From positions 70,957 to 134,956 of the forward strand of contig JAHJCU010000005.1 of assembly GCA_018812925.1 (NCBI GenBank): DNA of 64,000 nt, read 5' to 3'. This stretch comes from Candidatus Omnitrophota bacterium. Its GTDB lineage: Bacteria > CAIJMQ01. The position numbers and the translations under genes are program-made. This document shows, one piece after another, positions 1,295-22,669 of this stretch (the first letter of the stretch is position 1; every line of letters begins with the position of its first letter). The notes under the pieces were generated by a model. That model made no database searches. It was not told the DNA's origin and was given only the letters and a program-made list of their open reading frames with translations.

Positions 1295-1980
1295 TTGCAT
1301 TGCTTTCAGCATTATGGTTAGGCATTCTTACCTCAATAAGTCCTTGCCCTTTGGCGACAAATATTGCGGCTGTTTCGTTTCTTTCCAAAAAAATTAATCA
1401 TCCACGCACGGTTTTGTGGTCCGGATTGGCATATACGTTGGGAAGGATGACGGCATATGCTGTACTTGGTGTAATTATTATTTCTTCTTTAGCCGGAGTT
1501 CCGGTTGTTGCTAATTTTTTGCAAAAGTATATGAATAAAATTTTAGGTCCTGTTCTTATTATTGTTGGGCTTTTCCTTTTAGATGTCCTGAAATTAGATT
1601 TTTTAAACTTTTCAATATCAAGTGAAAAACATAATAAGCTGGCAGAAATGGGTATCTTCGGTTCATTTACCCTGGGTGCTGTTTTTGCGCTTTCTTTCTG
1701 TCCTATATCAGCAGCGCTGTTTTTCGGAAGTTTAATTCCTCTGGCATTGAATAATAATTTTGGCATAACATTTCCTTTTGTATACGGTATTGGGACAGGA
1801 TTACCTGTTGTTATTTTTGCAATAGGTATAACTTTTGGTGTTCATTCAATAGCGCACTGGTTTAAGCAGGTAACTAAACTTGAAAATTATATGCGAAAAG
1901 TTACCGGAGTTATATTTATCCTAGTGGGAATTTATTTCCTTTGGTCTCATATTATAGTTAATTTTATGTTAAGAGGGTGA
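1291..1980 (+). CDS. CcdA/DsbD-family transmembrane thiol:disulfide electron-transfer protein.
   Basis: Polytopic membrane protein with intramembrane Cys motifs 'ISPCPL' and 'SFCPIS', characteristic of the DsbD/CcdA cytochrome c biogenesis transmembrane region. Confidence 0.65.
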   Translation: MIALLSALWLGILTSISPCPLATNIAAVSFLSKKINHPRTVLWSGLAYTLGRMTAYAVLGVIIISSLAGVPVVANFLQKYMNKILGPVLIIVGLFLLDVLKLDFLNFSISSEKHNKLAEMGIFGSFTLGAVFALSFCPISAALFFGSLIPLALNNNFGITFPFVYGIGTGLPVVIFAIGITFGVHSIAHWFKQVTKLENYMRKVTGVIFILVGIYFLWSHIIVNFMLRG

Positions 1981-1986
1981 CCAAAA

Positions 1987-3069
1987 ATGGAACGAGTTAT
2001 TTATGAAAAAAAACTGAATATTTTCGAGAGATATCTTACTCTATGGGTATTTATCTGTATCGGGATAGGTATATTTCTTGGTAAATTTGCGCCCGGAATT
2101 GCCAGGACATTAGAAGGCATTGCAATAGCCAATGTTTCTATTCCCATTGCGATATGTCTTTTTTTCATGATGTATCCAATTATGGTGAAAATAGATTTTG
2201 CGGAAGTAATCAAGGCAGGGAAAACGCCGAAACCGGTTTTGCTGACTCTTTTTATTAACTGGATGATTAAACCTTTTACGATGTATTTTATAGCGACGTT
2301 TTTCTTGGGTTATTTATTTAAAAATATCCTGCCGGGAGTGGAAATACTTAAAGATGGAAATACCGTTGAGCTATATCGTTCGTATATATCTGGTGCGATA
2401 CTTTTAGGCATTGCCCCATGCACGGCTATGGTTTTGATGTGGAGTTACTTGGCAAAAGGCAATAGCGGGCTTACTTTGGTTATGGTTGCCGTTAATTCTT
2501 TAATGATGCTTTTTCTTTACGCCCCGTTGGGAGGATTTCTCCTTAGGATAAATCAAATGCCTATTCCTTGGATGACGATTGTTTTATCTGTGATATTTTA
2601 TGTCGCTATACCGCTTGCTGCAGGTTATTTTTCCCGAAAATGGATTATTAAATATAAAGGGAAAGAATGGTTTGAGAGAAAGTTTTTGCGGTTCTTAACT
2701 CCTGTTTCTATTGGAGCTTTGTTAGTAACGCTGGTTCTTTTGTTCTCTTTTAAGGGTGACGTTATTGTCGCTCAACCGCAAGTTATATTTTTGATTGCGA
2801 TTCCGTTGTTTATCCAAACTTGTCTTATTTTTGCGCTGGGATATATATTGGCTAGGGTTTTAAAATTGAAATATAAAGACGCTGCTCCGGCTGCAATGAT
2901 CGGGGCGAGCAATCATTTCGAAGTAGCGATTGCAACGGCTACAATGCTTTTCGGTCTTTCTTCGGGCGCGGCATTGGCGACAGTAGTTGGTGTTTTAATC
3001 GAAGTCCCGGTAATGCTTATGCTTGTCTCAATATGCAAAAACACCCGCCATTTCTTTTCTAATAAATAG
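1987..3069 (+). CDS. acr3: Arsenite efflux transporter, ACR3 family.
   Basis: 360-aa, 10-TM protein with ACR3/BART-superfamily sequence character ('[21 protein letters not shown]', '[10 protein letters not shown]', '[15 protein letters not shown]'). It immediately follows the thiol-redox trio. Confidence 0.8.
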
Positions 3070-3115
3070 TATAATATATCGGTTTTCATCCTAACATCTT
3101 TAAAATTTCAAAAAT

Positions 3116-4111
3116 ATGATTGTAGTAACCGGCGGGGCAGGATTTATCGGTAGCGCTATTGTATGGGCGCTTAATTTGAGAGGATACAATGAAATCCTGA
3201 TTGTTGACTTACTTGATAAGAGTAAAAAATGGGAAAATCTTGCTTGCTTAAAATTTTCCGATTCTATTGACAAGGATGAATTTATTGAAAAATTATATCA
3301 AGGAAAATTCTGTGACAAGATAGATGCAGTCATCCATATGGGCGCTGAAAGTTCTACGACTGTATATGAAACTGATTATCTTATGAAGAACAACTATGAA
3401 TATACAAAAAAATTGGCGATGTGGTGCATTAAAAATGACAAGAGATTTGTGTATGCTTCATCTGCCGCCACATACGGAAATGGTGACGAAGGGTTTTGCG
3501 ATGAACATTTGCAACTTGAAAAATTAAGGCCTCTAAATCCTTATGCCGATTCAAAACATCTTTTTGATTTATGGGCATATAGGCAGGGTTTGTTGGAAAA
3601 AATAGCAGGATTAAAATTCTTCAATTGTTTTGGTCCCAACGAATATCATAAAGAAAGTATGAAAAGCATGGTGCTTCAGGCTTTTGAGCAGATTAAAAAA
3701 AACGGAAAAGTTAAACTTTTTAAATCGTTTAATACACAATACAAAGACGGAGAACAATTGCGCGATTTTATATATGTTAAAGATGCGGCGGATATGACGT
3801 TATTTATATTTGAAAATAAAAAAGTAAATGGTATTTTTAATATCGGCACGGGAAAAGCACAAAGCTTCAACGAACTTGTGAATTCAGTCTTTGGAGCCAT
3901 GGGAAAAGACAGCAACATAGCATACATAGACATGCTGGAGTCAATAAAAGATAAATACCAATATTTTACCCAAGCCGATATGGGGAAATTAAAGGATGCA
4001 GGATATATAAAGAAAACTCATACACTTAAAGAAGCAGTCTATGATTATGTTAAGAATTATCTGTTAAAAGATAATTCTTATCTTAAAATAAACAACATTT
4101 CTTTTAGTTGA
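3116..4111 (+). CDS. hldD: ADP-L-glycero-D-manno-heptose 6-epimerase.
   Basis: 'MIVVTGGAGFIGSAIVWALN' Rossmann NAD motif, a YxxxK-type SDR-like core, length 331 aa, typical HldD/RfaD layout. Confidence 0.85.
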   Translation: MIVVTGGAGFIGSAIVWALNLRGYNEILIVDLLDKSKKWENLACLKFSDSIDKDEFIEKLYQGKFCDKIDAVIHMGAESSTTVYETDYLMKNNYEYTKKLAMWCIKNDKRFVYASSAATYGNGDEGFCDEHLQLEKLRPLNPYADSKHLFDLWAYRQGLLEKIAGLKFFNCFGPNEYHKESMKSMVLQAFEQIKKNGKVKLFKSFNTQYKDGEQLRDFIYVKDAADMTLFIFENKKVNGIFNIGTGKAQSFNELVNSVFGAMGKDSNIAYIDMLESIKDKYQYFTQADMGKLKDAGYIKKTHTLKEAVYDYVKNYLLKDNSYLKINNISFS

Positions 4112-4120
4112 AACTAAGCC

Positions 4121-5722
4121 ATGAAACAGATGAAGTGGATTAATAGTTTAGGAATATTTTTAGCAATTTTTTTTCTTACAGGATGCGGCGCCGCGCGCAT
4201 AAGAACTTCCGCTGACCGTGAAGTTTATAAAATATTAGAAAAGAAAACAAAAGAAGTTACCTCCGAAAAAATCCCATGGGATATCCGGTTCCAATCAATA
4301 CAAGAAACACCTTCCGAAGATACTCCTTTAACGCTTAAAGATGTTTTGATTATAGCTACAAAAAATAACCGAGATTATCAATCGGCAAAAGAAGACGTTT
4401 ATCTGCAAACATTAGCTTTAATTTCCCAAAGATATAATTATAGCTTGCGGTATGGAATAGACGGGACAGTAACATGGGAAAAAGATAGTTTAGGGACAGA
4501 AAATGTAAATGCAGATTTAAATTTGAATCTTGTAAAATGGTTGGCTCAAGGGGCTCAAATAACATTTAACATTGCCCAGGAGTATCTCAAGTATCTAATC
4601 GGGGATACTGACGGAATTTTTCAGACAGTTGTCGGTTTGGATATTCTGCAACCATTATTTAGAGGTGCCGGCAGGAGTGTTGCTCAAGCAGGTTTAATTC
4701 AGGCAGAAAGAGACGTAATATATCAAATAAGGTCTTTTTTAAGATATCAGCGAGGTTTTTCTGTAACTGTTGCAGATAAATATTTCACTCTACTGGAAGT
4801 AGAGAATAATCTTGAAAACTATTCTAAGAATTATATTTATTTAAAACAGACGAGAGGAAGGATAGAGATGCTTTCTGAAGCCGGTAGAGCTACTCCTATT
4901 GAGGTGGATCAGACAAGGCAGGATGAATATAGAGCGTATCAAAGTTGGCTTTCTGCTAATAATAATTATCAGAAGTTATTAGACGAATTTAAAATATTTT
5001 TAGGTCTTTCTCCTGAAATAAAAATTTCTCTTGAAGCTGAGGGGTTGGAAACATTTTTAGAAGAGGGTATATCCGAAATTAAAGTTGAGCCGCAAGAATC
5101 TGTAAAATTAGCTCTTGAGAAAAGGCTTGATTTAATGACAGCATATGACCAATTGGAAGACAGCAAAAGAGATGTGCACGTTGCCTTAAATGCATTAAGA
5201 ACAAGACTTGACTTAAATCTTGGCGTTGAAAGTAGAACTCCTACAGGAGATAAACCCAGTTGGGAATTTGAGGAGCCAACTTATACCGCAGGATTTAATT
5301 TGGAACTTCCATTAAACAAAGTTCCTGAAAGAAATGCTTATATACAAGCTTTAATTAGTTTTGAAAGAGAAAAAAGGAGTGTTACTCAAACAAGAGATGA
5401 GCTCAAACTTGATATCTTAAATCTCTGTCGAGATTTAGAAGAGTTATATCAGACATATATTATTCAAGACAAAAGCCTTAAACTTGCAAGTAAAAGAGTT
5501 GAAGGAACTGATTTGTTGCTTCAAGCAGGAAGAGCAACTACACGAGATTTGTTGGAAGCTCAAGAATCGTATCTTAACGCAAAGAATTCCTTATCAACGG
5601 CAATTGTAAACTATTTAGTTTCTTATCTGGAATTTTTAAGAGATACTGAAACTTTAGAAATTGATGAGGGTGGAGTATGGAAAGGAGACCTCTATGAAAA
5701 AATCAGTGGGGAAAGAGACTAA
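4121..5722 (+). CDS. TolC-family outer-membrane efflux protein (lipoprotein).
   Basis: Signal plus lipobox 'FLTGCGA'. 533 aa with the two repeated alpha-helical/beta-barrel halves typical of outer-membrane factor proteins. It is the first gene of the efflux operon. Confidence 0.75.
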   Translation: MKQMKWINSLGIFLAIFFLTGCGAARIRTSADREVYKILEKKTKEVTSEKIPWDIRFQSIQETPSEDTPLTLKDVLIIATKNNRDYQSAKEDVYLQTLALISQRYNYSLRYGIDGTVTWEKDSLGTENVNADLNLNLVKWLAQGAQITFNIAQEYLKYLIGDTDGIFQTVVGLDILQPLFRGAGRSVAQAGLIQAERDVIYQIRSFLRYQRGFSVTVADKYFTLLEVENNLENYSKNYIYLKQTRGRIEMLSEAGRATPIEVDQTRQDEYRAYQSWLSANNNYQKLLDEFKIFLGLSPEIKISLEAEGLETFLEEGISEIKVEPQESVKLALEKRLDLMTAYDQLEDSKRDVHVALNALRTRLDLNLGVESRTPTGDKPSWEFEEPTYTAGFNLELPLNKVPERNAYIQALISFEREKRSVTQTRDELKLDILNLCRDLEELYQTYIIQDKSLKLASKRVEGTDLLLQAGRATTRDLLEAQESYLNAKNSLSTAIVNYLVSYLEFLRDTETLEIDEGGVWKGDLYEKISGERD

Positions 5723-7436
5723 ATCTCATATCCGTTCGTTTATTAAGACAGCGCTACAGGGTAAAAATAAATTCTTCTTGGCGGGCGGAATTGTTTTTAT
5801 ATTTCTCTTGCTATTTCTTAACGGTTTTATTCACGGGAAAAAAAGGATAGAAGGACTAATTAGCTATGAAGTAAAAAGACAAGGTCTAGTTATATCTGTT
5901 GTAGAAGGAGGAAATCTCAAGGCACTGCGTTCTCAGAAAATTATTAATGAAGTCCCTGGTCAGCGGAATATTCTAGAGGTAATTGACGAAGGAATACTAA
6001 TCACTGAAAAGGATGTTCAGGACAGCAAAATCCTTATGAAACTTGATTCCAAGGATTTAGATGACCGCGCAGAGGAGTTAAGGATAACTGTAGAGAACAG
6101 TTTGTCGTCTTATACGCAGGCACAGCAAAATCTTGAAATACAGAAAAAACAGAATGACAGCGATATTATACAGGCAGAATTGAACGTCAAGTTTGCGAAG
6201 ATAGATTTAGAAAAATATTTAGGAGAGAAATTAGCTGGTGAGCTTATTATAAATGAGAGTGAGAATATAAACTTTTCAAAGTTGATAGCAAATCCGCAGT
6301 TGGAAGGAGAGGCTCTTAATAAGAAAAGGGAACTTGAGAATAGTATAGACCTTTCAAAAGAAGAAGTCGCTCGGGCGAAAGACAGAGTCCAGTGGAGCGA
6401 AAAATTATCCGAAAAAGAATATATAACAAAAAGTGAATTGGATGCAGACAGATTTTCTTTGCAACAACAAGAGGCCTCTTCAGAGAATTCTAAGTTAGGA
6501 TATCAACTTTTCCTGGATTACGACTTTCCCAAACAAGTGGCGTTACTTCTTTCTAATTATCAGGAATCTCTAAGAGAACTTGATAAAACAAAAGCCAAAT
6601 GTGGATCTGAAATTATTAAAGCAGAATCATATGTTAGAAGTAGCGAAGCAGCTTATTTAGGAATTAAGAATAATCTTAGTGAAGCGGAACAAAATATTGT
6701 CAAATGCACAATCAGGGCAACACAACCAGGGCTCGTTGTCTATGCAACAAGCAGTAACCCTTGGCGTTCACAGAATCCAATTCAACCAGGTACTACCGTG
6801 TACGACAGGCAAGATTTATTGAATCTTCCAGATTTCAGCAGTATGGGAGTTGAAGTAAAGATTCATGAATCTTCAATAGAAAAAATAAAGGTTGGGCAAA
6901 AAGTCCTTATAAAAGTAGATGCTTGTAGTGGGAACCAATTTACTGGAGAAGTGAAAAAAGTTGCACCTTTGCCAGACGCTACTTTCAAATGGATGAACCC
7001 TGATTTGAATGTTTATCTCGTTGAAATTTCGCTTGATAAAAATGGGCAGAATTTTGATTGCCTAAAACCGGGGCTGTCTGCAGAAGTAGAAATCATGATT
7101 GAGAAATTAGAAAATGTTTTGGTGGTTCCTTTAGCAGTCATATCACAAAGAGAAGGAAAATCCACCTGTGCTGTTCTTAGAGGAAGTAGGATTGACATTA
7201 GAAAAATCGAACTTGGTAGTAGTAGTGAAGATATGGTAGAAGTAAAAAGTGGATTAAAAGAAAGGGAAATCGTAGTAATATTGTCCGGTGAAATGGGAGA
7301 ACAAGTTAAAAAAACGCCCATGGCTGAAACAGGAAAATTTAAGAGCGAAGAGACAGAGAATATGCCGACAGAACAACCCCCAACGACGAATACAACAAGA
7401 CCTGAAAATAGCGGAACAGGTAGACCTAATCGATAA
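5694..7436 (+). CDS. HlyD/MacA-type periplasmic adaptor (membrane fusion protein).
   Basis: N-terminal TM anchor 'FFLAGGIVFIFLLLFL', a long coiled-coil, and a C-terminal beta-barrel region ('VPLAVISQREGKSTCAVL'). A low-complexity Pro/Thr tail is present. The likely start is ATG at 5694 with an AAAGGAG RBS; the ORF caller extends it to 5661. Confidence 0.75.
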   Translation: MKKSVGKETKSHIRSFIKTALQGKNKFFLAGGIVFIFLLLFLNGFIHGKKRIEGLISYEVKRQGLVISVVEGGNLKALRSQKIINEVPGQRNILEVIDEGILITEKDVQDSKILMKLDSKDLDDRAEELRITVENSLSSYTQAQQNLEIQKKQNDSDIIQAELNVKFAKIDLEKYLGEKLAGELIINESENINFSKLIANPQLEGEALNKKRELENSIDLSKEEVARAKDRVQWSEKLSEKEYITKSELDADRFSLQQQEASSENSKLGYQLFLDYDFPKQVALLLSNYQESLRELDKTKAKCGSEIIKAESYVRSSEAAYLGIKNNLSEAEQNIVKCTIRATQPGLVVYATSSNPWRSQNPIQPGTTVYDRQDLLNLPDFSSMGVEVKIHESSIEKIKVGQKVLIKVDACSGNQFTGEVKKVAPLPDATFKWMNPDLNVYLVEISLDKNGQNFDCLKPGLSAEVEIMIEKLENVLVVPLAVISQREGKSTCAVLRGSRIDIRKIELGSSSEDMVEVKSGLKEREIVVILSGEMGEQVKKTPMAETGKFKSEETENMPTEQPPTTNTTRPENSGTGRPNR

Positions 7437-9383: not shown

Positions 9384-9441
9384 CAAAATAAAAAATTTAA
9401 AACAAAAATTAAAATCAAAAATAAGAAAGTTAAGGAGATAA

Positions 9442-9792
9442 AGACCTGCTCGTCCACTCACGCGTGGCAAAATCGTTCTTATTCTTGCCGGCGGCGGAGC
9501 TAAATCTTTATCCCAGATAGGCGTTTTAAAAGTCCTTGAAAGAGAAAAAATTCCTATCGATATGCTCGTGGGATGTAGTATGGGCGCAATTGTGGGAGCT
9601 CTTTTTTCCATAGGAGTTCCCGTGGGAAAAATAGAAAGTATAATCCTGAATTTTTGCCAATTCAAACAGATAAAAGAAATAGAAAGAACATTTACCTCGG
9701 AAGCAGAAGGTATACAGAAAATTGGAGAATTTGTGAGGGATTTAAAAAGAAGTTATAGCCCAACTTCCTTTTCTAAAAAAAGCTCTTATTAA
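9442..9792 (+). pseudogene. Patatin-like phospholipase N-terminal fragment. It lacks a start codon and is truncated before the catalytic Asp region.
   Basis: The frame from 9442 encodes 'KIVLILAGGGAKSLSQIGVLKVLEREKIPIDMLVGCSMGAIVGALF', which carries the GGGxK oxyanion motif and the GxSxG nucleophile motif. There is no ATG/GTG/TTG before the first internal Met at 9562, and the ORF stops after ~110 aa, whereas full patatins are ~250-300 aa. Confidence 0.5.
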
Positions 9793-9868: not shown

Positions 9869-10135
9869 TTATTTTTTGCAGGTAGAGCAGCCTTTTGGCT
9901 CGCAGGATGAAGAACAGGAAGAACTTTTTGGAGGGCTTTCAGTTTTATTTTCTTTCTTCTTATAATCCGTAGCGTAAAACCCGGAACCTTTGAATATCAG
10001 CCCCGCTCCCGCTCCTATCAATCTTTTTACTTTACCGTTGCATTTCGGACACTTCTTTAAAGATTCTGCTGTCATGCTGTGGAACGCTTCAAATTTGTGT
10101 CCGCATTTTTTACATTCGTAGTCGTAAGTAGGCAT
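9869..10135 (-). CDS. FmdB-family zinc-ribbon protein.
   Basis: 'MPTYDYECKKCGHKFEAF...CPKCNGKVKRL' is the canonical FmdB CxxC...CxxC N-terminus. The likely start is the internal Met; the ORF caller extends it to 10168. Confidence 0.7.
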   Translation of the reverse strand: MPTYDYECKKCGHKFEAFHSMTAESLKKCPKCNGKVKRLIGAGAGLIFKGSGFYATDYKKKENKTESPPKSSSCSSSCEPKGCSTCKK

Positions 10136-10243
10136 TTTTTCTCCTAAAACAGCAGGGCAATATACCATTTCAACTTCATTTTAGTCAAATTCTGCCACGA
10201 AATTGACTCATTTTAAAAAACCGCTTATAATGCCAAGTCATTC

Positions 10244-10317
10244 GGGCCATTAGCTCAATTTGGCAGAGCAGTGGACTCTTAATCCATTTGTTGCAGGTTC
10301 AAGTCCTGCATGGCCCA
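10244..10317 (+). tRNA. tRNA-Lys (anticodon CTT).
   Basis: Cloverleaf folded by hand. Acceptor GGGCCAT/ATGGCCC, D-stem GCTC/GAGC, anticodon stem GTGGA/TCCAT with loop CTCTTAA (anticodon CTT), T-arm GCAGG-TTCAAGT-CCTGC, discriminator A. Confidence 0.85.
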
Positions 10318-10532
10318 CTAAACTAAGAAAATGATACTTGATGCTAGATTCTTGATACTAGTGGAAACAAGTAATCAGACTAAAACCCAATAAAAGCGGA
10401 GAAAAACTAATTCTATAAAGATTAAAAGTATCTAGACAAAACAAGTTTTGTAGTTACCCAACACCTATTTCAGAGAGAAATCCTACCAATTTATTTGTGC
10501 ATAAATATTTTTAAAGTAAGACAAAAAAGCAC

Positions 10533-10561
10533 TTGACATACTTTTTATAGTATAGTATACT
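10533..10561 (+). promoter_or_regulatory. Sigma70-like promoter with an overlapping palindromic operator upstream of the antitoxin gene.
   Basis: TTGACA (10533-10538), a 17-nt spacer, then TATACT (10556-10561). The palindrome AGTATAG/TATACT overlaps the -10. An AAGGAGG RBS lies 8 nt before ATG 10586. Confidence 0.45.
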
Positions 10562-10585
10562 TTCTATCAAAAGGAGGAAATTTAG

Positions 10586-10822
10586 ATGACCACAACAGTT
10601 GTAACCACAAAAGGGCAGATAGTAATACCTTCAAAAATTCGCAATCGGCTAAAAATAAAAAGAGGGACAAAACTTTATATAGAAGAAAACGGCACGGAAC
10701 TAATTCTTAAACCTGTCACGCCCGAATACTTCGGAAGAATAGCCGGAGTTTTATCTACTAAGGGTAAATTGTCAAAAGCGTTATTGGAAGGACGCTCAAA
10801 AGACAAAGGAAGAGAGGGCTAA
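10586..10822 (+). CDS. AbrB/MazE/SpoVT-type antitoxin.
   Basis: 78 aa. 'TKGQIVIPSKIRNRLKIKRGTKLYIEENGTELILKP' is a swapped-hairpin AbrB-type DNA-binding fold. The stop lies 3 nt before the PIN gene start. Confidence 0.7.
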   Translation: MTTTVVTTKGQIVIPSKIRNRLKIKRGTKLYIEENGTELILKPVTPEYFGRIAGVLSTKGKLSKALLEGRSKDKGREG

Positions 10823-10825
10823 ACT

Positions 10826-11224
10826 ATGACGAGCATTCTTGATTCTCACGGACTTTTAGCATTCTTGGAAAAAGAACCCGGATTCGAAAAAGTGGAATCT
10901 CTTTTTGTAAATGCGGTTGCAAAAGACAAAGACCTGCTGATGACTTCGGTAAATTGGGGAGAAGTTTATTATATAGTTCTCCGTGAATGCGGAGCAGAAA
11001 AAGCGCAGGAAATAGAAAGAGTAATAAAAACCCTGCCTATAGAAATTATTGATGTTGACATAACCCTTGCCAAACAAGCCGCTTATTTCAAAGCCACAAA
11101 GAAGCTCTCCTATGCGGATTGTTTCGCCGCCGCTTTAGCAAAACAACATAAAGGAGAAGTCGTAACGGGTGATAAAGAATTTAAAGCAGTAGAGGATGAG
11201 GTAAGAATTGCATGGATAATTTAA
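10826..11224 (+). CDS. PIN-domain ribonuclease toxin (VapC-like).
   Basis: 132 aa. Begins 'ILDSHGLLAFL', with a PIN acidic residue pattern including a C-terminal 'VTGDKEF'. Paired with the upstream AbrB antitoxin. Confidence 0.7.
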   Translation: MTSILDSHGLLAFLEKEPGFEKVESLFVNAVAKDKDLLMTSVNWGEVYYIVLRECGAEKAQEIERVIKTLPIEIIDVDITLAKQAAYFKATKKLSYADCFAAALAKQHKGEVVTGDKEFKAVEDEVRIAWII

Positions 11225-13566
11225 ATTTATTATTAAAATTAGTAAAAGCACAAGATGAGGAAGAAGTTGGCAATATAATTACTTGCCATCCTGTATTGTC
11301 AAAAGAGGAGAATTGGAAACCACTTGCTGGGGAGCGCTCAAATATCGGTTTTGCTCATGCTCAACAAGCAAGTCCGATTCCCGCTTTAATAGAAAAACCA
11401 GTCAACTCGATAGATGCTCTTTTAACAAAGGAATGTATTCTAAGGGATATCGATCCTGAAGAACAGAAAGCCCCCTCTAGTATTCAAGAAGCTGCTGAAA
11501 AATTTTTCGGTATAGAAAGAGGGGATTTTACTGAAATTACAGACAAGCGATTACGTGAGGTTGCAGAAAATATTCAGATAATCGCTGACGGCACCAGACG
11601 AAACCCAAATATAATAATTTATGATAATGGAGAAGGACAGCATCCATCTAATTTTGAAAAAACTTTTCTGTATCGTTCAAGAGAGAACAAAATCAAAATA
11701 AAATTTGTTCAAGGGAAATTTAATATGGGCGGGACTGGAGCATTACGTTTCTGCGGAGCAAATAAATATCAACTTATATTATCACGCAGACATACTTCGT
11801 TATTAAATGAAAATCTAGGCCTTTATGGATTTACTTTAGTAAGATTTCATAGAGTAACTACTGTGGGTGAATATAAAAGCCAGTGGTATGAATATTGTGT
11901 CGATAAAACTGGGGATGTCTTTTCTTTTTCATCTGAAGAACTAAATTTGGGTCTATTCAGAAGGAAATTCCAATATGGGACTTACATAAAACTTTTCAAT
12001 TACGATTTACCAGATCGTTCCGATATAAGATTGGGACTATGGAGAGCATTCAATCGCTACTTATATTATCCAGCTTTACCGATTCTTTTATATGAAAAGA
12101 GAGATTATAAAGGAGGACATGGGGACCCAACAAAACTGATGCTTGGAAATAAAATGAGAATTATGAAAGACGGAAGGGAGCAAAAAGAGACATCCTTCCC
12201 TTTAGAGATAAATTTTAAGAATTTTAAGTTCCATGGAGAGGTTACAGTTTTTAAAGATGAGGTTGATAAGAATGAATTCGTAGAAAAACTTGCTGTGATA
12301 TTTACAATAAATGGACAAGTACATGATTATTTGGGTAGTTCTTTTATTGCTTCCAAGAACGGCGCTAATTTACCATATTTAAGTAACTCCCTTTTAGTTA
12401 ATATCGATTGCAGTAATATATCGCCATATATTCGCGATGAGTTATTTATGTCTTCTCGAGATAGAAGGGCTGAAACAGAGACGAAACGCGAATTAGACTA
12501 TGAGATAGCAAGGGAATTAAGAGACCTCGATATTTTACGGCAACTTAATGAGAAAAGAAGAGATGAAAAAATTTTCAAAAATCCTAAAGACGAGGACTTT
12601 CTAAAAAGAGTAATGAGCAGGTTAATTAGTAAGAATGAAGAAATTAGTAAACTGTTAGGACTTAATGGAGACATTGCTAGTAATATTATAAAGAAAACGC
12701 TACAAAAGAGAATTGAGAAGCAAGGCGAAATATTTAAACCAAAACGTTATCCTTCTTTTGTAAGATTTAAAAAGATAGCCCCCGGTAATATTAAAATGCT
12801 ACCTCAAAATGGCGAGTGCAAATTGTTCTTAGAAACAGACGTAGAGAACGAATACCTTATAAGACCACGAGACAAAGGAGACTTTAAAATTACCTTTGAA
12901 AAACCCCATTTAGGTGTTGGAGGAGAAGGAAGAGAAAAAGGTTCAGAAGAAGAAGTTTTTGATGTCAATATTGTTGGACCTACTCAAGGAGAAATAAAAC
13001 TAAGAATAAAAACAAAAAAAGAGTTACCAGTAGGCACAACTGTTAATATGAAAATAGAATTGTCTTCACCCGATGGACCTCATGTGTTAACAGCTTTTAT
13101 TAAAATTGATAATCCAATCAAAGAAGCACATGAAAAAGAAATTGAAATTAGAAAAACTTATCAATTGCCAGAAATTATAGATGTATATCGAGAGAAAAAA
13201 CAAGATATTGATACTCCAATTTGGAATAGTAATGATTATAATTGGACTGGAGAAGACATATGTAAAATTTGGCAATCAAGTGGAGAAAATAGTCTTGTTG
13301 ACGCAGTAGCAATAAATATGGATGCTAATTCCCTTCATGACTATATAAGAAAAAGAAAATTAACGGACAAACAAATAGAGAGCACTTCAAGATTATATCG
13401 GGTAGGGATTTATTTAATCTCTTTAATAACATACTTCCAACTTTCTCAACGAGAAGGTATTGAAGACAAAGAAGAATTGGCTTCTTATCTGATGAAGGGT
13501 GTAGGTAAGATTATAATTCATGTCATAATTAATGACGAAATAATTAAAGAGATAGATAAGGAATAA
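11212..13566 (+). CDS. Large GHKL (Bergerat-fold, MutL/MORC/HATPase_c_3-like) ATPase with an uncharacterised ~330-aa C-terminal region.
   Basis: N-box 'IEKPVNSIDALL' (E-x3-N-x2-DA), G1 box 'IIIYDNGEGQ' (DxGxG), G2 box 'GKFNMGGTGALRF', then a MutL-transducer-like 'VIFTINGQVHDY' segment. The start ATG overlaps the PIN stop by 13 nt (ATGGATAATTTAA), indicating translational coupling. Confidence 0.6.
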   Translation: MDNLNLLLKLVKAQDEEEVGNIITCHPVLSKEENWKPLAGERSNIGFAHAQQASPIPALIEKPVNSIDALLTKECILRDIDPEEQKAPSSIQEAAEKFFGIERGDFTEITDKRLREVAENIQIIADGTRRNPNIIIYDNGEGQHPSNFEKTFLYRSRENKIKIKFVQGKFNMGGTGALRFCGANKYQLILSRRHTSLLNENLGLYGFTLVRFHRVTTVGEYKSQWYEYCVDKTGDVFSFSSEELNLGLFRRKFQYGTYIKLFNYDLPDRSDIRLGLWRAFNRYLYYPALPILLYEKRDYKGGHGDPTKLMLGNKMRIMKDGREQKETSFPLEINFKNFKFHGEVTVFKDEVDKNEFVEKLAVIFTINGQVHDYLGSSFIASKNGANLPYLSNSLLVNIDCSNISPYIRDELFMSSRDRRAETETKRELDYEIARELRDLDILRQLNEKRRDEKIFKNPKDEDFLKRVMSRLISKNEEISKLLGLNGDIASNIIKKTLQKRIEKQGEIFKPKRYPSFVRFKKIAPGNIKMLPQNGECKLFLETDVENEYLIRPRDKGDFKITFEKPHLGVGGEGREKGSEEEVFDVNIVGPTQGEIKLRIKTKKELPVGTTVNMKIELSSPDGPHVLTAFIKIDNPIKEAHEKEIEIRKTYQLPEIIDVYREKKQDIDTPIWNSNDYNWTGEDICKIWQSSGENSLVDAVAINMDANSLHDYIRKRKLTDKQIESTSRLYRVGIYLISLITYFQLSQREGIEDKEELASYLMKGVGKIIIHVIINDEIIKEIDKE

Positions 13567-13587
13567 AAGGAGTTGTATCTTGTATTG

Positions 13588-13605
13588 AGCAGGGCAGGCT
13601 GATAC
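13588..13605. repeat. Left arm of a 300-bp-spaced inverted repeat (AGCAGGGCAG-G-CTGATAC).
   Basis: Reverse complement of 13910-13927 with one mismatch. Located 22 nt after the GHKL gene stop. Confidence 0.6.
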
Positions 13606-13682
13606 TTCCTTTTTGCAACTTTCAAGTCTGGTATTTGGGGAAGACAGATAACTGAAGGTTTGTCAGAAAGGAGGTGAAAGCC

Positions 13683-13895
13683 ATGGTTAATTGTAAGAAC
13701 GATGCTCCTGGAATGAGGGGGTATCGTTCTAGGAACCAAAATGGCCTACTGCGTGACAAACGTGATGATACTCATATGGGCACCATTGAAGCGCAGTATG
13801 GTCATGATTTCGGGGTTCGTTCTGATATGCTTTTGGGAAATTACCTAAAGCAAAGAAGAATTGCTTCTCTGAATGATTTAGTTAATGGTAAATAA
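13683..13895 (+). CDS. Small basic hypothetical protein (70 aa) lying between the inverted-repeat arms.
   Basis: AGGAGGTG RBS 7 nt upstream of ATG 13683. The ORF is visibly GC-richer than the flanking DNA. No recognisable motif. Confidence 0.4.
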   Translation: MVNCKNDAPGMRGYRSRNQNGLLRDKRDDTHMGTIEAQYGHDFGVRSDMLLGNYLKQRRIASLNDLVNGK

Positions 13896-13909
13896 CCATA
13901 ACTAAAGGT

Positions 13910-13927
13910 GTATCAGACTGCCCTGCT
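13910..13927. repeat. Right arm of the inverted repeat (GTATCAG-A-CTGCCCTGCT).
   Basis: Pairs with 13588-13605. Confidence 0.6.
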
Positions 13928-14023
13928 GTACAAAACAGCGACTAATCACACAAAAATGTATTTATAAAATAGCGCTCTCTTCCCCTTTTTACATTCTCTA
14001 TTATGTGGTAAAATTTAACACTT

Positions 14024-14107
14024 GCCGAGGTGGCGGAACTGGTAGACGCGCATGGTTGAGGGCCATGTCCCTTTATTGGGATGGGGGTTCAAGTCCCCCC
14101 TTCGGCA
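14024..14107 (+). tRNA. tRNA-Leu (anticodon GAG).
   Basis: Acceptor GCCGAGG/CTTCGGC, anticodon stem CATGG/CCATG with loop TTGAGGG, long variable arm, T-arm GGGGG-TTCAAGT-CCCCC, discriminator A. Confidence 0.85.
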
Positions 14108-14118
14108 CTAATTTTTTT

Positions 14119-20751: not shown

Positions 20752-21462
20752 TTATCTATATTTAAATTCTACATACCTTATAAAACGGAATAATCCGTGC
20801 GTATCTTTAATCCCTATTCTATTAAGCGCGTAAAGGTTGTCGTTCTGCTTTACTATGCCTCTTTTTGTAGTTAAAGCGCATTTATAGCCGACTTCTTTTA
20901 GAATCTGTTGCACCCCAGAATTGAAGTGTCCGTATGGATAACATAAAAAATCCGCTTTCTTACCCAGTTGTTTTTCGATTATCTCTCTTGAAATAACGAG
21001 TTCTTTTTTTATCTTTTCTTTATCCAGTTTAGGTAGGGATGGATGTGTATGAGTATGCGGCTGAAAATCTATACCGTAATTCGCCATTTCTTTTATCTTA
21101 TCCCACGAGAGTAGCGGCTCTTTTATAGTTTCCTCACTATTTATCCACCCGGACAAACCACCGATATCTTTTGTTATCAGAAAAATAGTCGCGCTAAATC
21201 TGAACTCTTTTAGAATAGGGAATGCGTAAGTATAATTGTCCTCATATCCGTCATCAAATGTGAGAATAATAGATTTTGAGGGAAGTTTTTTTGTACCGTC
21301 AAGCCAATTGAGCAATTCATATAAGCTGATGGTCTTATAACCGCGCCACTTAAGATACCTCATCTGACGGCGAAAATTATATGGTGTAACATATAGGGCT
21401 GATACTTTTGCCTTAGGATTTGGCTGGCTAATTTTGTGATAGAACAGAATCGGGACTTTCAT
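20752..21462 (-). CDS. Polysaccharide deacetylase (NodB-homology) family protein.
   Basis: 'LTFDDGYEDNYTYAFPILKEF' and 'HTHTHPSL' are NodB-domain motifs. Confidence 0.75.
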   Translation of the reverse strand: MKVPILFYHKISQPNPKAKVSALYVTPYNFRRQMRYLKWRGYKTISLYELLNWLDGTKKLPSKSIILTFDDGYEDNYTYAFPILKEFRFSATIFLITKDIGGLSGWINSEETIKEPLLSWDKIKEMANYGIDFQPHTHTHPSLPKLDKEKIKKELVISREIIEKQLGKKADFLCYPYGHFNSGVQQILKEVGYKCALTTKRGIVKQNDNLYALNRIGIKDTHGLFRFIRYVEFKYR

Positions 21463-22669
21463 TTTTTATTTTTTTATGCGTAATATTGTGAGAACCTGCC
21501 AAATTTTCAAAGAGAGGAAGTCTTCCAAAACGCGCAGGAAGGGGGACATTATCTCTTTTCAAAGGAAGGATTACGGTAATTTCGGTACCTTCATCTAATT
21601 TACTTTTGAATTTTATATCTCCGCCGTGAGCTTTGATTATGCGATATGTTATCATCAGACCCAACCCCGAACCTTCCGTTTTTGTCGTGAAATACGGTTC
21701 GAATATTCTATAAAGATTATTTTCAGCAATACCGATCCCCTCATCTTTGATTACTACTTCAATTATGTCGCCTCTTAAAAAAGTGGATATATAAATATTT
21801 CCGCCTTTAGGCATTGCTTCTAAGGAATTTTTAAAGATGTTCAGTAACGCTTGTTTTATCTGAATACGGTCAAGAAGAAAGGAAGGAATATATGGAGAAA
21901 AGCTTTCTTTTATTTTTATATTATTTTTTTTAAACTCGGGTGAAAAGAAAGTGACAAGCTCTTTTATTATACTTTCTATTGCTACTTCTTCCAATTTGAG
22001 AAGTGAAGGGCGAGATGCTTCAAGAAATTGTTCGACTATTTTATCCAGTCGGTCTATTTCTTCTCTTATAGTTTCCACAAAACCGACAAGTTTTTCCTGG
22101 GAATTAGCAGATAATTTTTTGATTTCCTTCTTTAAAAGTTCAAGATGAATCTGAAGAGAATTTAAAGGGTTGCCGACTTCGTGTGCAACACCAGCTGCAA
22201 GTTGTGATAAAGTCGCAAACCTTTCTCCGCTTGCCCTTTCTTCTTGAGTTTTTCTTTCTTGAGTAATGTCATCTATTATTATAATCCCTCCCAAGGGTTT
22301 CCCTTTTTTCGATAAAAGGGCTAATTTGCTCATTTTAAGCAAACGGTGGCGGGGTTCTGAGACCTCTACTATTTCGTCTTTGAATTCCTTTTTGCTTTCC
22401 AATATCAAATGCGCTAAACGTTTGTCATAGAACGAAAAAGAACCAAACAAGTCGTTTATATCAATAGACATTATCTCGTTAAGACGTTTATTTATATATA
22501 CAGCGTTATTGTCAAAATCTAAAACGAGTATTCCTTCTGTAAGAGAATTGAAAATATTTTCTAAAAGACCTCTTTCCCAAAGAAGTTCGCCTATATACTG
22601 GCGAATTTCCCCTTTGTCTATATTCTCTATCTTGTCTATTAATTTTTCCCAAAATCTTTCCAGAATCAT
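21428..22669 (-). CDS. Sensor histidine kinase (PAS, HisKA and HATPase_c domains).
   Basis: H-box 'HEVGNPLNSLQ', N-box 'IFKNSLEAM', G-boxes 'IKDEGIGI' and 'GSGLGLMI'. Confidence 0.8.
   Translation of the reverse strand: MILERFWEKLIDKIENIDKGEIRQYIGELLWERGLLENIFNSLTEGILVLDFDNNAVYINKRLNEIMSIDINDLFGSFSFYDKRLAHLILESKKEFKDEIVEVSEPRHRLLKMSKLALLSKKGKPLGGIIIIDDITQERKTQEERASGERFATLSQLAAGVAHEVGNPLNSLQIHLELLKKEIKKLSANSQEKLVGFVETIREEIDRLDKIVEQFLEASRPSLLKLEEVAIESIIKELVTFFSPEFKKNNIKIKESFSPYIPSFLLDRIQIKQALLNIFKNSLEAMPKGGNIYISTFLRGDIIEVVIKDEGIGIAENNLYRIFEPYFTTKTEGSGLGLMITYRIIKAHGGDIKFKSKLDEGTEITVILPLKRDNVPLPARFGRLPLFENLAGSHNITHKKIKNESPDSVLSQN

Follow-up and report, generated by a model that had tools for sequence, protein, structure and literature searches.

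A mobile AbrB-PIN-ATPase cassette in Omnitrophota carries a member of an unnamed prokaryotic family of MORC-like GHKL proteins

The 784-aa protein encoded at positions 11212..13566 (+) of the window, by which we mean the whole 64,000-nucleotide stretch of Candidatus Omnitrophota DNA analysed here, belongs to a large, unnamed prokaryotic family of MORC-like proteins in which a GHKL ATPase is combined with an S5-fold transducer. Its gene is the last of a three-gene mobile cassette (10492..13566, +, delimited as a blastn homology block), where it follows a promoter, an AbrB antitoxin gene, and a PIN gene. Because one branch of the family lies nearly always beside sulfur-marking genes of the Ssp type, this adjacency makes the family a candidate new anti-invader component.

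The open reading frame starts with ATG and translates without stops, and the opposite strand across it is packed with them. GHKL motifs I (ExxxNxxD), II (DxGxG), III (G-rich lid), and IV (GT) are all present and in order. The N-box 'EKPVNSIDA' (residues 61-69), G1 'IYDNGEG' (136-142), and G2 'GKFNMGGTGAL' (168-178), which an earlier note on this DNA had read from the translation, are where it had placed them, and so is its transducer segment 'VIFTINGQVHDY' (362-373). In an alignment of 81 homologs with ~33-100% identity, conservation is at least 97% at each of Glu61, Asn65, and Asp68 of motif I, Asp138, Gly140, and Gly142 of motif II, Gln167, Gly168, and Gly173 of motif III, and Gly206 and Thr208 of motif IV, as well as at Asn367-Gly368-Gln369 of the transducer. 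Judged by this conservation, the motif matches are not chance resemblances, and the protein is a real and, to judge by its intact motifs, probably active MORC-type ATPase. Pfam HATPase_c_3, a model for the MORC/MutL type, matches the protein below threshold (E 0.0046, 17.4 bits against a cutoff of 25 bits), and a precomputed PF13589 match is found in only 2 among the 120 homologs listed. Since the GHKL call is weak from sequence alone, the case for it rests on motif conservation together with the predicted fold, which agree on a complete GHKL ATPase followed by a MutL/MORC-like transducer, as the earlier note had proposed.

A predicted model, rather than a solved structure, is the basis of all structural inference for the protein. 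The model contains a Bergerat alpha/beta sandwich, which with an N-terminal helical extension occupies residues ~1-270 (11212..12021, +; boundary approximate), and, as in MORC and paraMORC proteins, an S5-fold transducer follows (residues ~271-420; 12022..12471, +). The next segment, a predicted helical linker (residues ~421-482; 12472..12657, +), had been described as a coiled coil; the model resolves it into four lower-confidence helices between residues 423 and 481 (423-437, 440-454, 459-474, and 476-481; pLDDT 52-90). The region earlier called beta-rich corresponds in the model to an Ig-like beta-sandwich with a smaller beta subdomain (residues ~483-635 and ~648-702; 12658..13317, +), in which Thr542-Asp543, Tyr548, Arg551, Gly556, Pro653, Trp671, and Asn702-Met703 are conserved. 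The chain ends in a helical bundle (residues ~703-784, 706-783 in the model; 13318..13566, +), a candidate constitutive dimerisation domain. No nuclease or DNA-binding fold is recognisable anywhere in the protein, and the Ig-like and helical C-terminus is an architecture that has apparently not been described before.

At the DNA level, blastn homology of the cassette begins at 10492-10502 and stops at 13562, with unrelated flanks, and the 3.07-kb block covers exactly the three genes and their promoter; identity is 79% over 3,074 nt to loci L091/L092 and 66% to locus L007. In the window the cassette, which has a lower GC content, sits between tRNA-Lys and tRNA-Leu; in L091 the same trio follows dnaX-recR-HAMP at a different chromosomal site. 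The cassette is mobile, the same unit occurring at other chromosomal sites in other Omnitrophota. Neither att-type direct repeats nor an integrase was found around it, and the only 'repeat' that flanks it is a pair of tRNA T-arms. Upstream of the AbrB gene, the best match to a sigma-70-like promoter is TTGACA-17-TATACT (10533..10561, +; 11/12), with TATAG/TATAC repeats in its spacer; because the total of promoter-like matches in a scan of 10300-14100 did not exceed that of shuffles, support for this site is positional only. There is no terminator between the cassette genes, and the 13-nt overlap of the PIN and ATPase genes, the single promoter-like site, and the lack of an internal terminator are evidence that the trio may form one operon. 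Searches of the 64-kb window by tblastn for ssp, dnd, DGQHR, DUF262, methyltransferase, SIR2, and YhcG genes gave no match, so that any partner marking self DNA is either lacking here or encoded elsewhere in the genome.

AbrB-PIN is the textbook arrangement of a VapBC-type toxin-antitoxin pair. In the cassette, a 78-aa AbrB/MazE-type (SpoVT-AbrB) antitoxin-like gene (10586..10822, +; Pfam MazE_antitoxin 1.6e-9, NCBIfam AbrB-family domain 4.5e-13) directly precedes a 132-aa PIN-domain (VapC-like) nuclease gene (10826..11224, +; Pfam PIN 1.9e-18), which begins 4 nt after it and runs 13 nt into the ATPase gene. The PIN protein has the four acidic residues Asp6, Glu46, Asp98, and Asp116, conserved in all four copies of the trio; NCBIfam VapC equivalogs fall below cutoff, so that membership in VapBC holds at the domain level only. 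The same PIN cluster lies directly upstream of the ATPase gene in Omnitrophota genomes (the window, L007, and L091/L092), one Ignavibacteriaceae genome, and one Planctomycetota genome, and the 13-nt stop/start overlap recurs in the window, L007, and L091. Divergence of PIN and ATPase does not track across the trio copies: relative to the window, identity is 40% for PIN and 59% for the ATPase at locus L008, and 62% and 41%, respectively, at locus L019. On Devosia and Ensifer plasmids, VapBC pairs adjoin integrases a few kb from the ATPase gene.

The ATPase family comprises 2,516 clusters at 50% identity and is spread patchily over many bacterial phyla and some archaea, with members in at least 490 of 185,579 species genomes (well under 1%) and also on plasmids; this distribution is non-housekeeping and mobile. 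A phage origin was rejected, with no match among 50,697 phage genomes and just 7 IMG/VR contigs, whose contexts are host-like. Three clades can be distinguished, and the window copy falls in clade 1. The Ssp association is confined to clade 2, where sspB, sspC, or sspD (phosphorothioation) is no more than 7 genes away at 34 of 36 loci, against 0 of 45 in clades 1 and 3, and is independently confirmed by the RefSeq annotation of Hymenobacter, Devosia, and Ensifer plasmids. On the plasmid of Hymenobacter sp. YIM 151858-1 (NZ_CP110137.1), the island at ~65.8-75.4 kb comprises GHKL, SIR2, DUF262, sspD, sspC, and sspB genes; Aquimarina longa carries another locus of this clade. Some members adjoin DNA methyltransferases rather than Ssp genes. 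Partners in clade 2 include DGQHR/DndB, GIY-YIG-like, DUF262, SspE-like, SIR2, Ser/Thr kinase, and MORC-type genes, the last with HATPase_c_3 scores of 89-91 bits in the same loci. The label GIY-YIG-like, given to neighbour clusters c7/c20/c88, is provisional, combining sub-threshold Pfam matches (GIY_YIG_2, E 0.009; Eco29kI, E 0.17) with motifs read by eye. No SF-II helicase was found among the identified recurring neighbour clusters, and neither Topo VI-A nor MutS nor a response regulator adjoins the family gene.

Most family members lack PIN; the upstream gene is c5 (a 75-aa protein), c31, or absent, and such a combination of a variable upstream gene and a conserved core is consistent with a sensor or motor whose partners can be exchanged. 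In the window, a 76-aa ORF at 9562-9792 was considered as c5 and ruled out by its translation and by a six-frame scan with the c5 HMM. A Pfam scan of 110 genes flanking clade 1 and clade 3 members yielded no consistent family, only a mixture in which mobile or defence genes are dotted among housekeeping ones, and the neighbourhood of these clades, the window included, is not a clear defence island. Clusters of sspBCD occur in only ~3% of genomes (PMC12914056), and ~84% of them have no known restriction partner (PMC8092258). By a rough reverse estimate, ~3 of 86 plasmid-borne sspB loci carry a family gene; the family is therefore a minority Ssp partner and could account for no more than a small fraction of the orphan Ssp systems. 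Our literature search found no GHKL/MORC protein linked to Ssp or Dnd.

In MutL-MutH and MutL-Vsr, a GHKL clamp licenses a separate nuclease. From our analysis, we give about even weight to the reading that the 784-aa protein serves a restriction-like conflict system as a MORC/MutL-like DNA clamp that is gated by ATP and works with swappable partner nucleases. For this mechanism, modelled on MORC, MutL, and Topo VI-B, we infer that the protein is an active ATPase, dimerises, clamps DNA, activates a partner, and has a role in defence. The protein would form a dimer joined through the C-terminal helical bundle, and ATP binding would shut the N-terminal GHKL gate, trapping DNA, clamped or as a loop, within a cavity whose walls are formed by the transducer, the helical linker, and the Ig-like domains. 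The closed clamp would then license a separately encoded enzyme, as MutL does with MutH and Topo VI-B with Topo VI-A. In the phosphorothioation-linked clade, sulfur marks would label self DNA, and the licensed partners might be GIY-YIG-like proteins with DGQHR, DUF262 with SIR2 or a kinase, or SspE-like proteins; in the window, the partner is possibly the co-transcribed PIN nuclease.

In another possible reading, though one we hold only tentatively, the ATPase acts alone or with unlinked partners, and AbrB-PIN is an ordinary VapBC addiction module that stabilises the mobile cassette, hitchhikes with it, and is mechanistically separate from the ATPase. Pfam matches typical of VapBC, the repeat-rich promoter spacer as in autoregulated toxin-antitoxin operons, the many members without PIN, the out-of-step divergence of PIN and ATPase, and the VapBC pairs beside integrases near the gene on Devosia and Ensifer plasmids all agree with such a module, but hitchhiking sits poorly with one PIN cluster directly upstream in three lineages, an overlap kept at three loci, and a homology block of exactly three genes and a promoter. 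That the pairing recurs while ATPase identity ranges over 37-83% suggests selection on the PIN-ATPase linkage. For clade 2, it is the modification side that offers another explanation: the protein might be an accessory that loads, scans, or regulates SspBCD or methyltransferases, or one engaged in the repair or protection of marked DNA, with the solitary clades having drifted to DNA maintenance. Linkage of clade 2 to sspBCD does hold whatever effector genes are present, no neighbouring nuclease is obvious at locus L082 or at flavobacterial T-XRE-sspBCD-MORC loci, and DndB/DGQHR partners are regulators in Dnd systems, going by their NCBIfam and Pfam names. We nevertheless consider an accessory role unlikely, given that SspABCD of Vibrio and E. 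coli modifies DNA without such a protein (PMC8092258; PMC12914056), that ssp genes are missing from all 45 clade-1 and clade-3 loci and the family gene from all but ~3 of 86 plasmid sspB loci, and that restriction or effector modules typically show just such a patchy, mobile spread with variable nuclease, SIR2, and kinase partners.

Two further explanations draw on the wider GHKL superfamily. In one, which seems to us quite improbable, the protein is an Hsp90-like chaperone of a tripartite toxin-antitoxin-chaperone module that controls AbrB stability or PIN activity and senses phage proteins through its Ig-like domains; there is no match to the HSP90 Pfam or the HtpG NCBIfam equivalog, and the fold likeness to Hsp90 covers the N and middle modules only and is weaker than that to MORC3. 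The other would make the protein a divergent housekeeping GHKL enzyme, an HtpG, MutL, GyrB/ParE, or Topo VI-B ortholog or a sensor histidine kinase, and has in its favour only a Bergerat fold and transducer common to such proteins; we regard it as effectively already refuted. The protein falls in no family of Pfam, NCBIfam, PADLOC, or PHROG, and this includes its C-terminus, which the earlier note had called uncharacterised; nor does it match HisKA/DHp, the Hsp90 middle domain, MutL_C, Toprim, or the Topo VI-B transducer. A MutL identity finds neither DNA_mis_repair nor MutL_C in Pfam or NCBIfam and a sporadic distribution; a histidine kinase would require HisKA or HATPase_c, both absent, and what comes after the ATPase domain here is an S5 transducer; a topo-type transducer with a Toprim or Topo VI-A partner, as in Topo VI-B or GyrB, was not found. 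PDB chains show no sequence similarity to the protein, queried as a single sequence or as a family profile, and the matches returned were rejected as being at chance level (an ABC transporter, E 1.4; the TRAF7 coiled coil, E 0.022). Occurrence in <1% of species genomes, at varied chromosomal positions and on plasmids, and the lack of a Topo VI-A, MutS, or response-regulator neighbour likewise speak against a housekeeping role. The earlier statement that the protein falls in none of the housekeeping GHKL classes is thus upheld by absent diagnostic domains and a patchy, mobile distribution, and no full-length assignment to HtpG or MutL emerged from the family and PDB searches. The PHROG search gave a weak match to phrog_16471, of no known function.

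Extending the clamp mechanism to the whole family, we tentatively suggest a hitherto unrecognised immune MORC class in prokaryotes, an ATP-gated clamp that might distinguish self from foreign DNA through phosphorothioate (or methyl) marks on the backbone or bases. It would then call in one of several exchangeable effectors (PIN, GIY-YIG, SIR2, kinase) or else keep the trapped DNA silenced or blocked, uncut. If this were true, the family would be a bacterial counterpart of eukaryotic MORC silencing of foreign DNA and would number among the 'missing' restriction partners that orphan SspBCD systems should have; solitary members, accompanied by the 75-aa c5 protein or by AbrB-PIN, would act as defence cassettes in their own right. 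At stake is how sulfur marks come to signify 'self' when just part of the sites carry them, a question that cultured carriers (Aquimarina, Hymenobacter, Devosia, and Ensifer) make directly testable; the compact 3.07-kb cassette is a ready-made construct for studying cooperation between VapBC-like and GHKL proteins.

The described systems closest to the family include MORC/paraMORC1-5 and eukaryotic MORC2/MORC3, from which the 784-aa protein differs in that HATPase_c_3 stays below threshold. In 2008, Iyer, Abhiman, and Aravind predicted that prokaryotic MORC/paraMORC proteins with GHKL and S5 domains act in restriction-modification systems together with nucleases, fused or standalone; their paper makes no mention of a link to SspBCD (PMC2292703). 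The present family would extend their prediction that MORC-type ATPases began in prokaryotic restriction systems. Relatives of the window copy adjoin SspBCD, methyltransferases, and nucleases; the window copy itself has only AbrB-PIN, and its C-terminus matches none of the modules described for paraMORC3 (RecB-like nuclease), paraMORC4 (TIR), or paraMORC5 (HxH motif). Unlike MutL, the family is not universal in its host lineages and has no MutS partner, and a beta-sandwich region replaces MutL's own C-terminal domain. Clade-2 relatives hold the same position beside sspBCD as SspE, SspFGH, and DndFGH, sometimes with SspE-like genes, but none of those proteins is a GHKL ATPase, no ssp gene lies close to the window copy, and no PADLOC or NCBIfam match indicates homology to SspE, SspF, SspH, or DndFGH. 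SspE combines DUF262 and DUF1524 (PMC8092258); an identity with SspF, SspG, or SspH, suspected at first, was dropped, SspF having a Walker A motif and SspH being FtsK-like (PMC8092258). A likeness to Ambrosia was also dropped, its HATPase being a two-component-type kinase with a REC partner. In PADLOC-DB v2.0.0, no family matches the ATPase, PIN, or AbrB protein at E ≤0.01. VcSduA, a Shedu nuclease with an N-terminal GHKL ATPase that has been shown experimentally to act against phages, and for which modelling gave an entwined dimer whose middle domain is clamp-like (PMC12137116), shares a GHKL domain with conserved motifs I-IV; identity with it was rejected, VcSduA being a GHKL-Shedu fusion whose DUF4263 PD-(D/E)xK nuclease has no equivalent in the 784-aa protein, which has neither a nuclease domain nor a PADLOC match. 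The upstream pair resembles VapBC in its antitoxin-PIN order, acidic residues, and promoter with a repeat-rich spacer, but here a GHKL ATPase gene overlaps the toxin gene and moves along with it as one unit. The best Foldseek match over the longest alignment is Topoisomerase VI-B (E 4.6e-10, 686 columns), and the M. mazei protein has a similar order of GHKL domain, transducer, long helices, and Ig-like C-terminal domain.

The ATPase gene (11212..13566, +) is a genuine ORF, as the earlier note had claimed, with 784 codons open from an ATG without internal stops and an opposite strand full of stops. The Bergerat motifs named from the translation were located at residues 61-69 (EKPVNSIDA), 136-142 (IYDNGEG) and 168-178 (GKFNMGGTGAL), and the proposed transducer motif VIFTINGQVHDY at residues 362-373. 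Sequence comparison on its own gives a faint GHKL signal: the match to Pfam HATPase_c_3 is below threshold (E 0.0046, 17.4 bits; cutoff 25 bits), NCBIfam and PADLOC return no match, PHROGs gives a single weak match to a family of unknown function, and no similar PDB chain was found by sequence with either the single protein or a 48-sequence profile as query. In an alignment of 81 homologues reaching down to about 33% identity, Glu61, Asn65, Asp68, Asp138, Gly140, Gly142, Gln167, Gly168, Gly173, Gly206 and Thr208 are at least 97% conserved, as are the transducer positions Gly312, Arg316, Asn367-Gly368-Gln369 and Arg416. Together these positions make up the complete Bergerat motif set I-IV, a point in favor of a functional ATPase; the window protein is conserved and probably active as an enzyme.

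Using an AlphaFold2 model built with the family alignment (pLDDT 79.7, pTM 0.69), Foldseek agreed on the superfamily, matching Topo VI-B (4.6e-10), Hsp90 (2e-8) and MORC3 (3e-8). Since the alignments cover both the GHKL and S5-type domains of the predicted model, they bear out the proposed MutL/MORC-like transducer. The segment previously taken for a coiled coil is indeed helical in the model but is predicted to form a four-helix linker (residues 423-481) instead. The final ~80 residues are modeled as a helical bundle, for which no match appears among the listed Foldseek matches.

A search of 5.8 billion proteins returned 1,898 relatives, nearly all 750-830 aa long, aligned end to end and annotated as 'hypothetical', and an exhaustive profile search gave 2,516 clusters at 50% identity (967 with E ≤ 1e-30). 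A scan of one genome per species showed that at least 490 species, drawn from many phyla and including cultured Bacteroidota, have relatives. The family is not phage-borne: none of 50,697 phage genomes carries it, and the seven IMG/VR contigs that do show host-like contexts. At 83 loci, ORFs were called and the neighboring genes clustered; clustering of the ATPases themselves yielded three clades, with the window protein in clade 1.

Clade 2 (36 loci), whose ATPases share about 33-35% identity with the window protein, is linked to the DNA phosphorothioation genes sspBCD: sspB (DUF4007, Pfam 2.9e-67), sspC (an AAA protein of ~1,070 aa) and/or sspD (PAPS_reduct) lie within seven genes of the ATPase in 34 loci. 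With sspBCD present in only about 3% of genomes (PMC12914056), chance cannot account for this linkage. RefSeq annotation of Hymenobacter, Devosia and Ensifer plasmids shows it independently, with the order integrase, GHKL, SIR2, DUF262, PAPS reductase, SspC, DUF4007, integrase in Hymenobacter, and SspDCB with a class-V aminotransferase (SspA-like) in Devosia. A clade-2 query returned names that were all 'hypothetical protein', even from cultured isolates. Further partners vary and include DndB/DGQHR proteins (Pfam 1.7e-31), SIR2_2 (5.5e-26), a Ser/Thr kinase (2.2e-19), DUF262-only proteins, SspE-like GmrSD proteins, bona fide MORC-type HATPase_c_3 proteins and small GIY-YIG-like proteins, the last recognized by eye with sub-threshold Pfam matches only.

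Several arrangements recur among the Ssp loci. In L054, L078 (Poribacteria), L055 and L061, two different GIY-YIG-like plus DGQHR pairs flank the ATPase, upstream cluster c88 or c20 with a long DGQHR protein and downstream cluster c7 with one of ~420 aa. Adjacent to sspD, a SIR2-family protein or a Ser/Thr kinase forms a pair with a DUF262-only protein (L100, NZ_CP110137.1 65.8-75.4 kb; L072, L075, L065), which looks like a split SspE with its nuclease half swapped for other effectors; tyrosine recombinase genes bound the entire island in L100, the Hymenobacter plasmid. A ~720-810-aa double-GHKL protein (HATPase_c_3 + HATPase_c), named 'sensor histidine kinase' in RefSeq, accompanies the ATPase in the Ssp loci of Alphaproteobacteria and in some others (L101 and L103, the Devosia and Ensifer plasmids; L062, L066); its N-terminus resembles the BbrUII/HgiDII restriction enzymes. 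On the Devosia and Ensifer plasmids, VapBC pairs adjoin integrases a few kb from the ATPase gene.

Ssp linkage was found at none of 45 loci in clades 1 and 3, where the gene directly upstream of the ATPase is c5, c31, AbrB-PIN or nothing, and the neighborhood beyond it is heterogeneous. The c5 product, a conserved helical protein of ~75 aa (signature ERFxRxAxxRTN...LGNCSN...YxY) without a Pfam or NCBIfam family, was detected by HMM at 17/100 loci from many phyla (L005:7761-7988, L017:240-467, L034:7773-7985, L095:5729-5959 and 13 others). The window lacks it. At those loci its gene always lies upstream of the ATPase gene at a spacing of -1 to 42 nt, and the protein is likely to serve as a dedicated partner or regulator. 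The second recurrent partner, c31 (~350 aa; L001:6935-7999, L021:6919-7962, L087), abuts or overlaps the ATPase start and has no Pfam match; its N-terminus appears ribbon-helix-helix-like by eye. Some family members adjoin DNA methyltransferase genes, distant ones lying directly beside site-specific or N6/N4 enzymes, not ssp (a haloarchaeal plasmid copy, L102, Halogeometricum borinquense pHBOR02, 1789-5963; L088, L090, L042), which suggests that the family is not restricted to a single kind of DNA modification as partner.

In the window, an AbrB/MazE-type antitoxin gene (10586-10822, +; Pfam 1.6e-9, NCBIfam AbrB domain 4.5e-13) precedes a PIN gene (10826-11224, +; Pfam 1.9e-18) whose acidic residues Asp6, Glu46, Asp98 and Asp116 are intact and whose end overlaps the ATPase start by 13 nt. 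The region's best-scoring promoter-like site (TTGACA-17-TATACT, 10533-10561, +) lies upstream of the AbrB gene, and a scan of the region found no terminator-like site between the PIN and ATPase genes. The trio, bracketed by tRNA-Lys(ctt) (10244-10318) and tRNA-Leu(gag) (14024-14108), has a slightly lower GC content (about 0.32-0.34) than its flanks (0.36-0.40), where housekeeping genes lie: on the upstream side an efflux operon of the MacAB/TolC type, and on the downstream side queA, fhs and alaS. A search around the cassette for an integrase gene or att-type repeats found neither. In L091, another Omnitrophota genome, the trio recurs after dnaX-recR-HAMP with the identical overlap and an 83% identical ATPase. 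In blastn comparisons with L091/L092 (79%) and L007 (66%), homology begins at 10492-10502 and ends at 13562, spanning promoter through ATPase stop codon between unrelated flanks; the three genes form a mobile unit.

For the window, the chief competing explanation is that AbrB-PIN serves only as an addiction module. PIN-ATPase pairs also occur in an Ignavibacteriaceae (L008) and a Planctomycetota genome (L019), and their identities to the window copy do not track each other (PIN 40%, ATPase 59%; PIN 62%, ATPase 41%). One possible cause is repeated capture, which would speak for function; another is that a hitchhiking toxin-antitoxin module has been exchanged. Against a defense reading, a search of the 64-kb window turned up no ssp, dnd or methyltransferase gene, clades 1 and 3 show no clear defense island, and the ATPase gene is present at only about 3/86 plasmid sspB loci.

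The closest concept dates from 2008, when prokaryotic GHKL+S5 ATPases of the MORC/paraMORC type were proposed to work in restriction-modification systems together with nucleases, whether fused or standalone, ATP driving DNA looping and complex remodeling (PMC2292703). The family fits it in fold, mobility, and DNA-modification and nuclease neighbors, but differs in its sub-threshold HATPase_c_3 sequence, its distinct C-terminus, predicted to be Ig-like and helical, and its phosphorothioation link; we therefore propose an ATP-gated dimeric clamp, which when closed would license partner effectors on DNA lacking a self mark. On this view the cassette in the window would be a derived, solitary form, and its ATPase may have the PIN nuclease as partner. 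The earlier reading is supported overall and its observation confirmed, and we interpret the window protein as a putative MORC-like conflict-system ATPase. The interest of the family lies mainly in the Ssp-linked clade, because through it some orphan phosphorothioation systems gain a candidate partner that can be tested. Literature searches found no paper tying a GHKL/MORC protein to Ssp or Dnd. Identity with SspF, SspG or SspH was rejected (SspF carries a Walker A motif and SspH is FtsK-like; PMC8092258), as was a PADLOC-catalogued system.

Just beyond the cassette homology block lies a 70-aa ORF (13683-13895, +) with a good Shine-Dalgarno sequence (aggaggtgaaagccATG) and no Pfam match, flanked by an 18-nt inverted repeat (13588-13605/13910-13927; 94% complementary, arms 304 nt apart). 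Upstream, the ORF at 9562-9792 (within 9440-9792, +) has a G-x-S-x-G-like 'GCSMGA' segment and, judged by eye from its translation, looks like a patatin-like lipase gene fragment. An FmdB-family zinc-ribbon gene (9869-10168, -; NCBIfam 5.6e-20) and the gene for a 413-aa protein (21428-22669, -) that by BLAST resembles the histidine-kinase-type half of the double-GHKL proteins appear unrelated to the ATPase finding.
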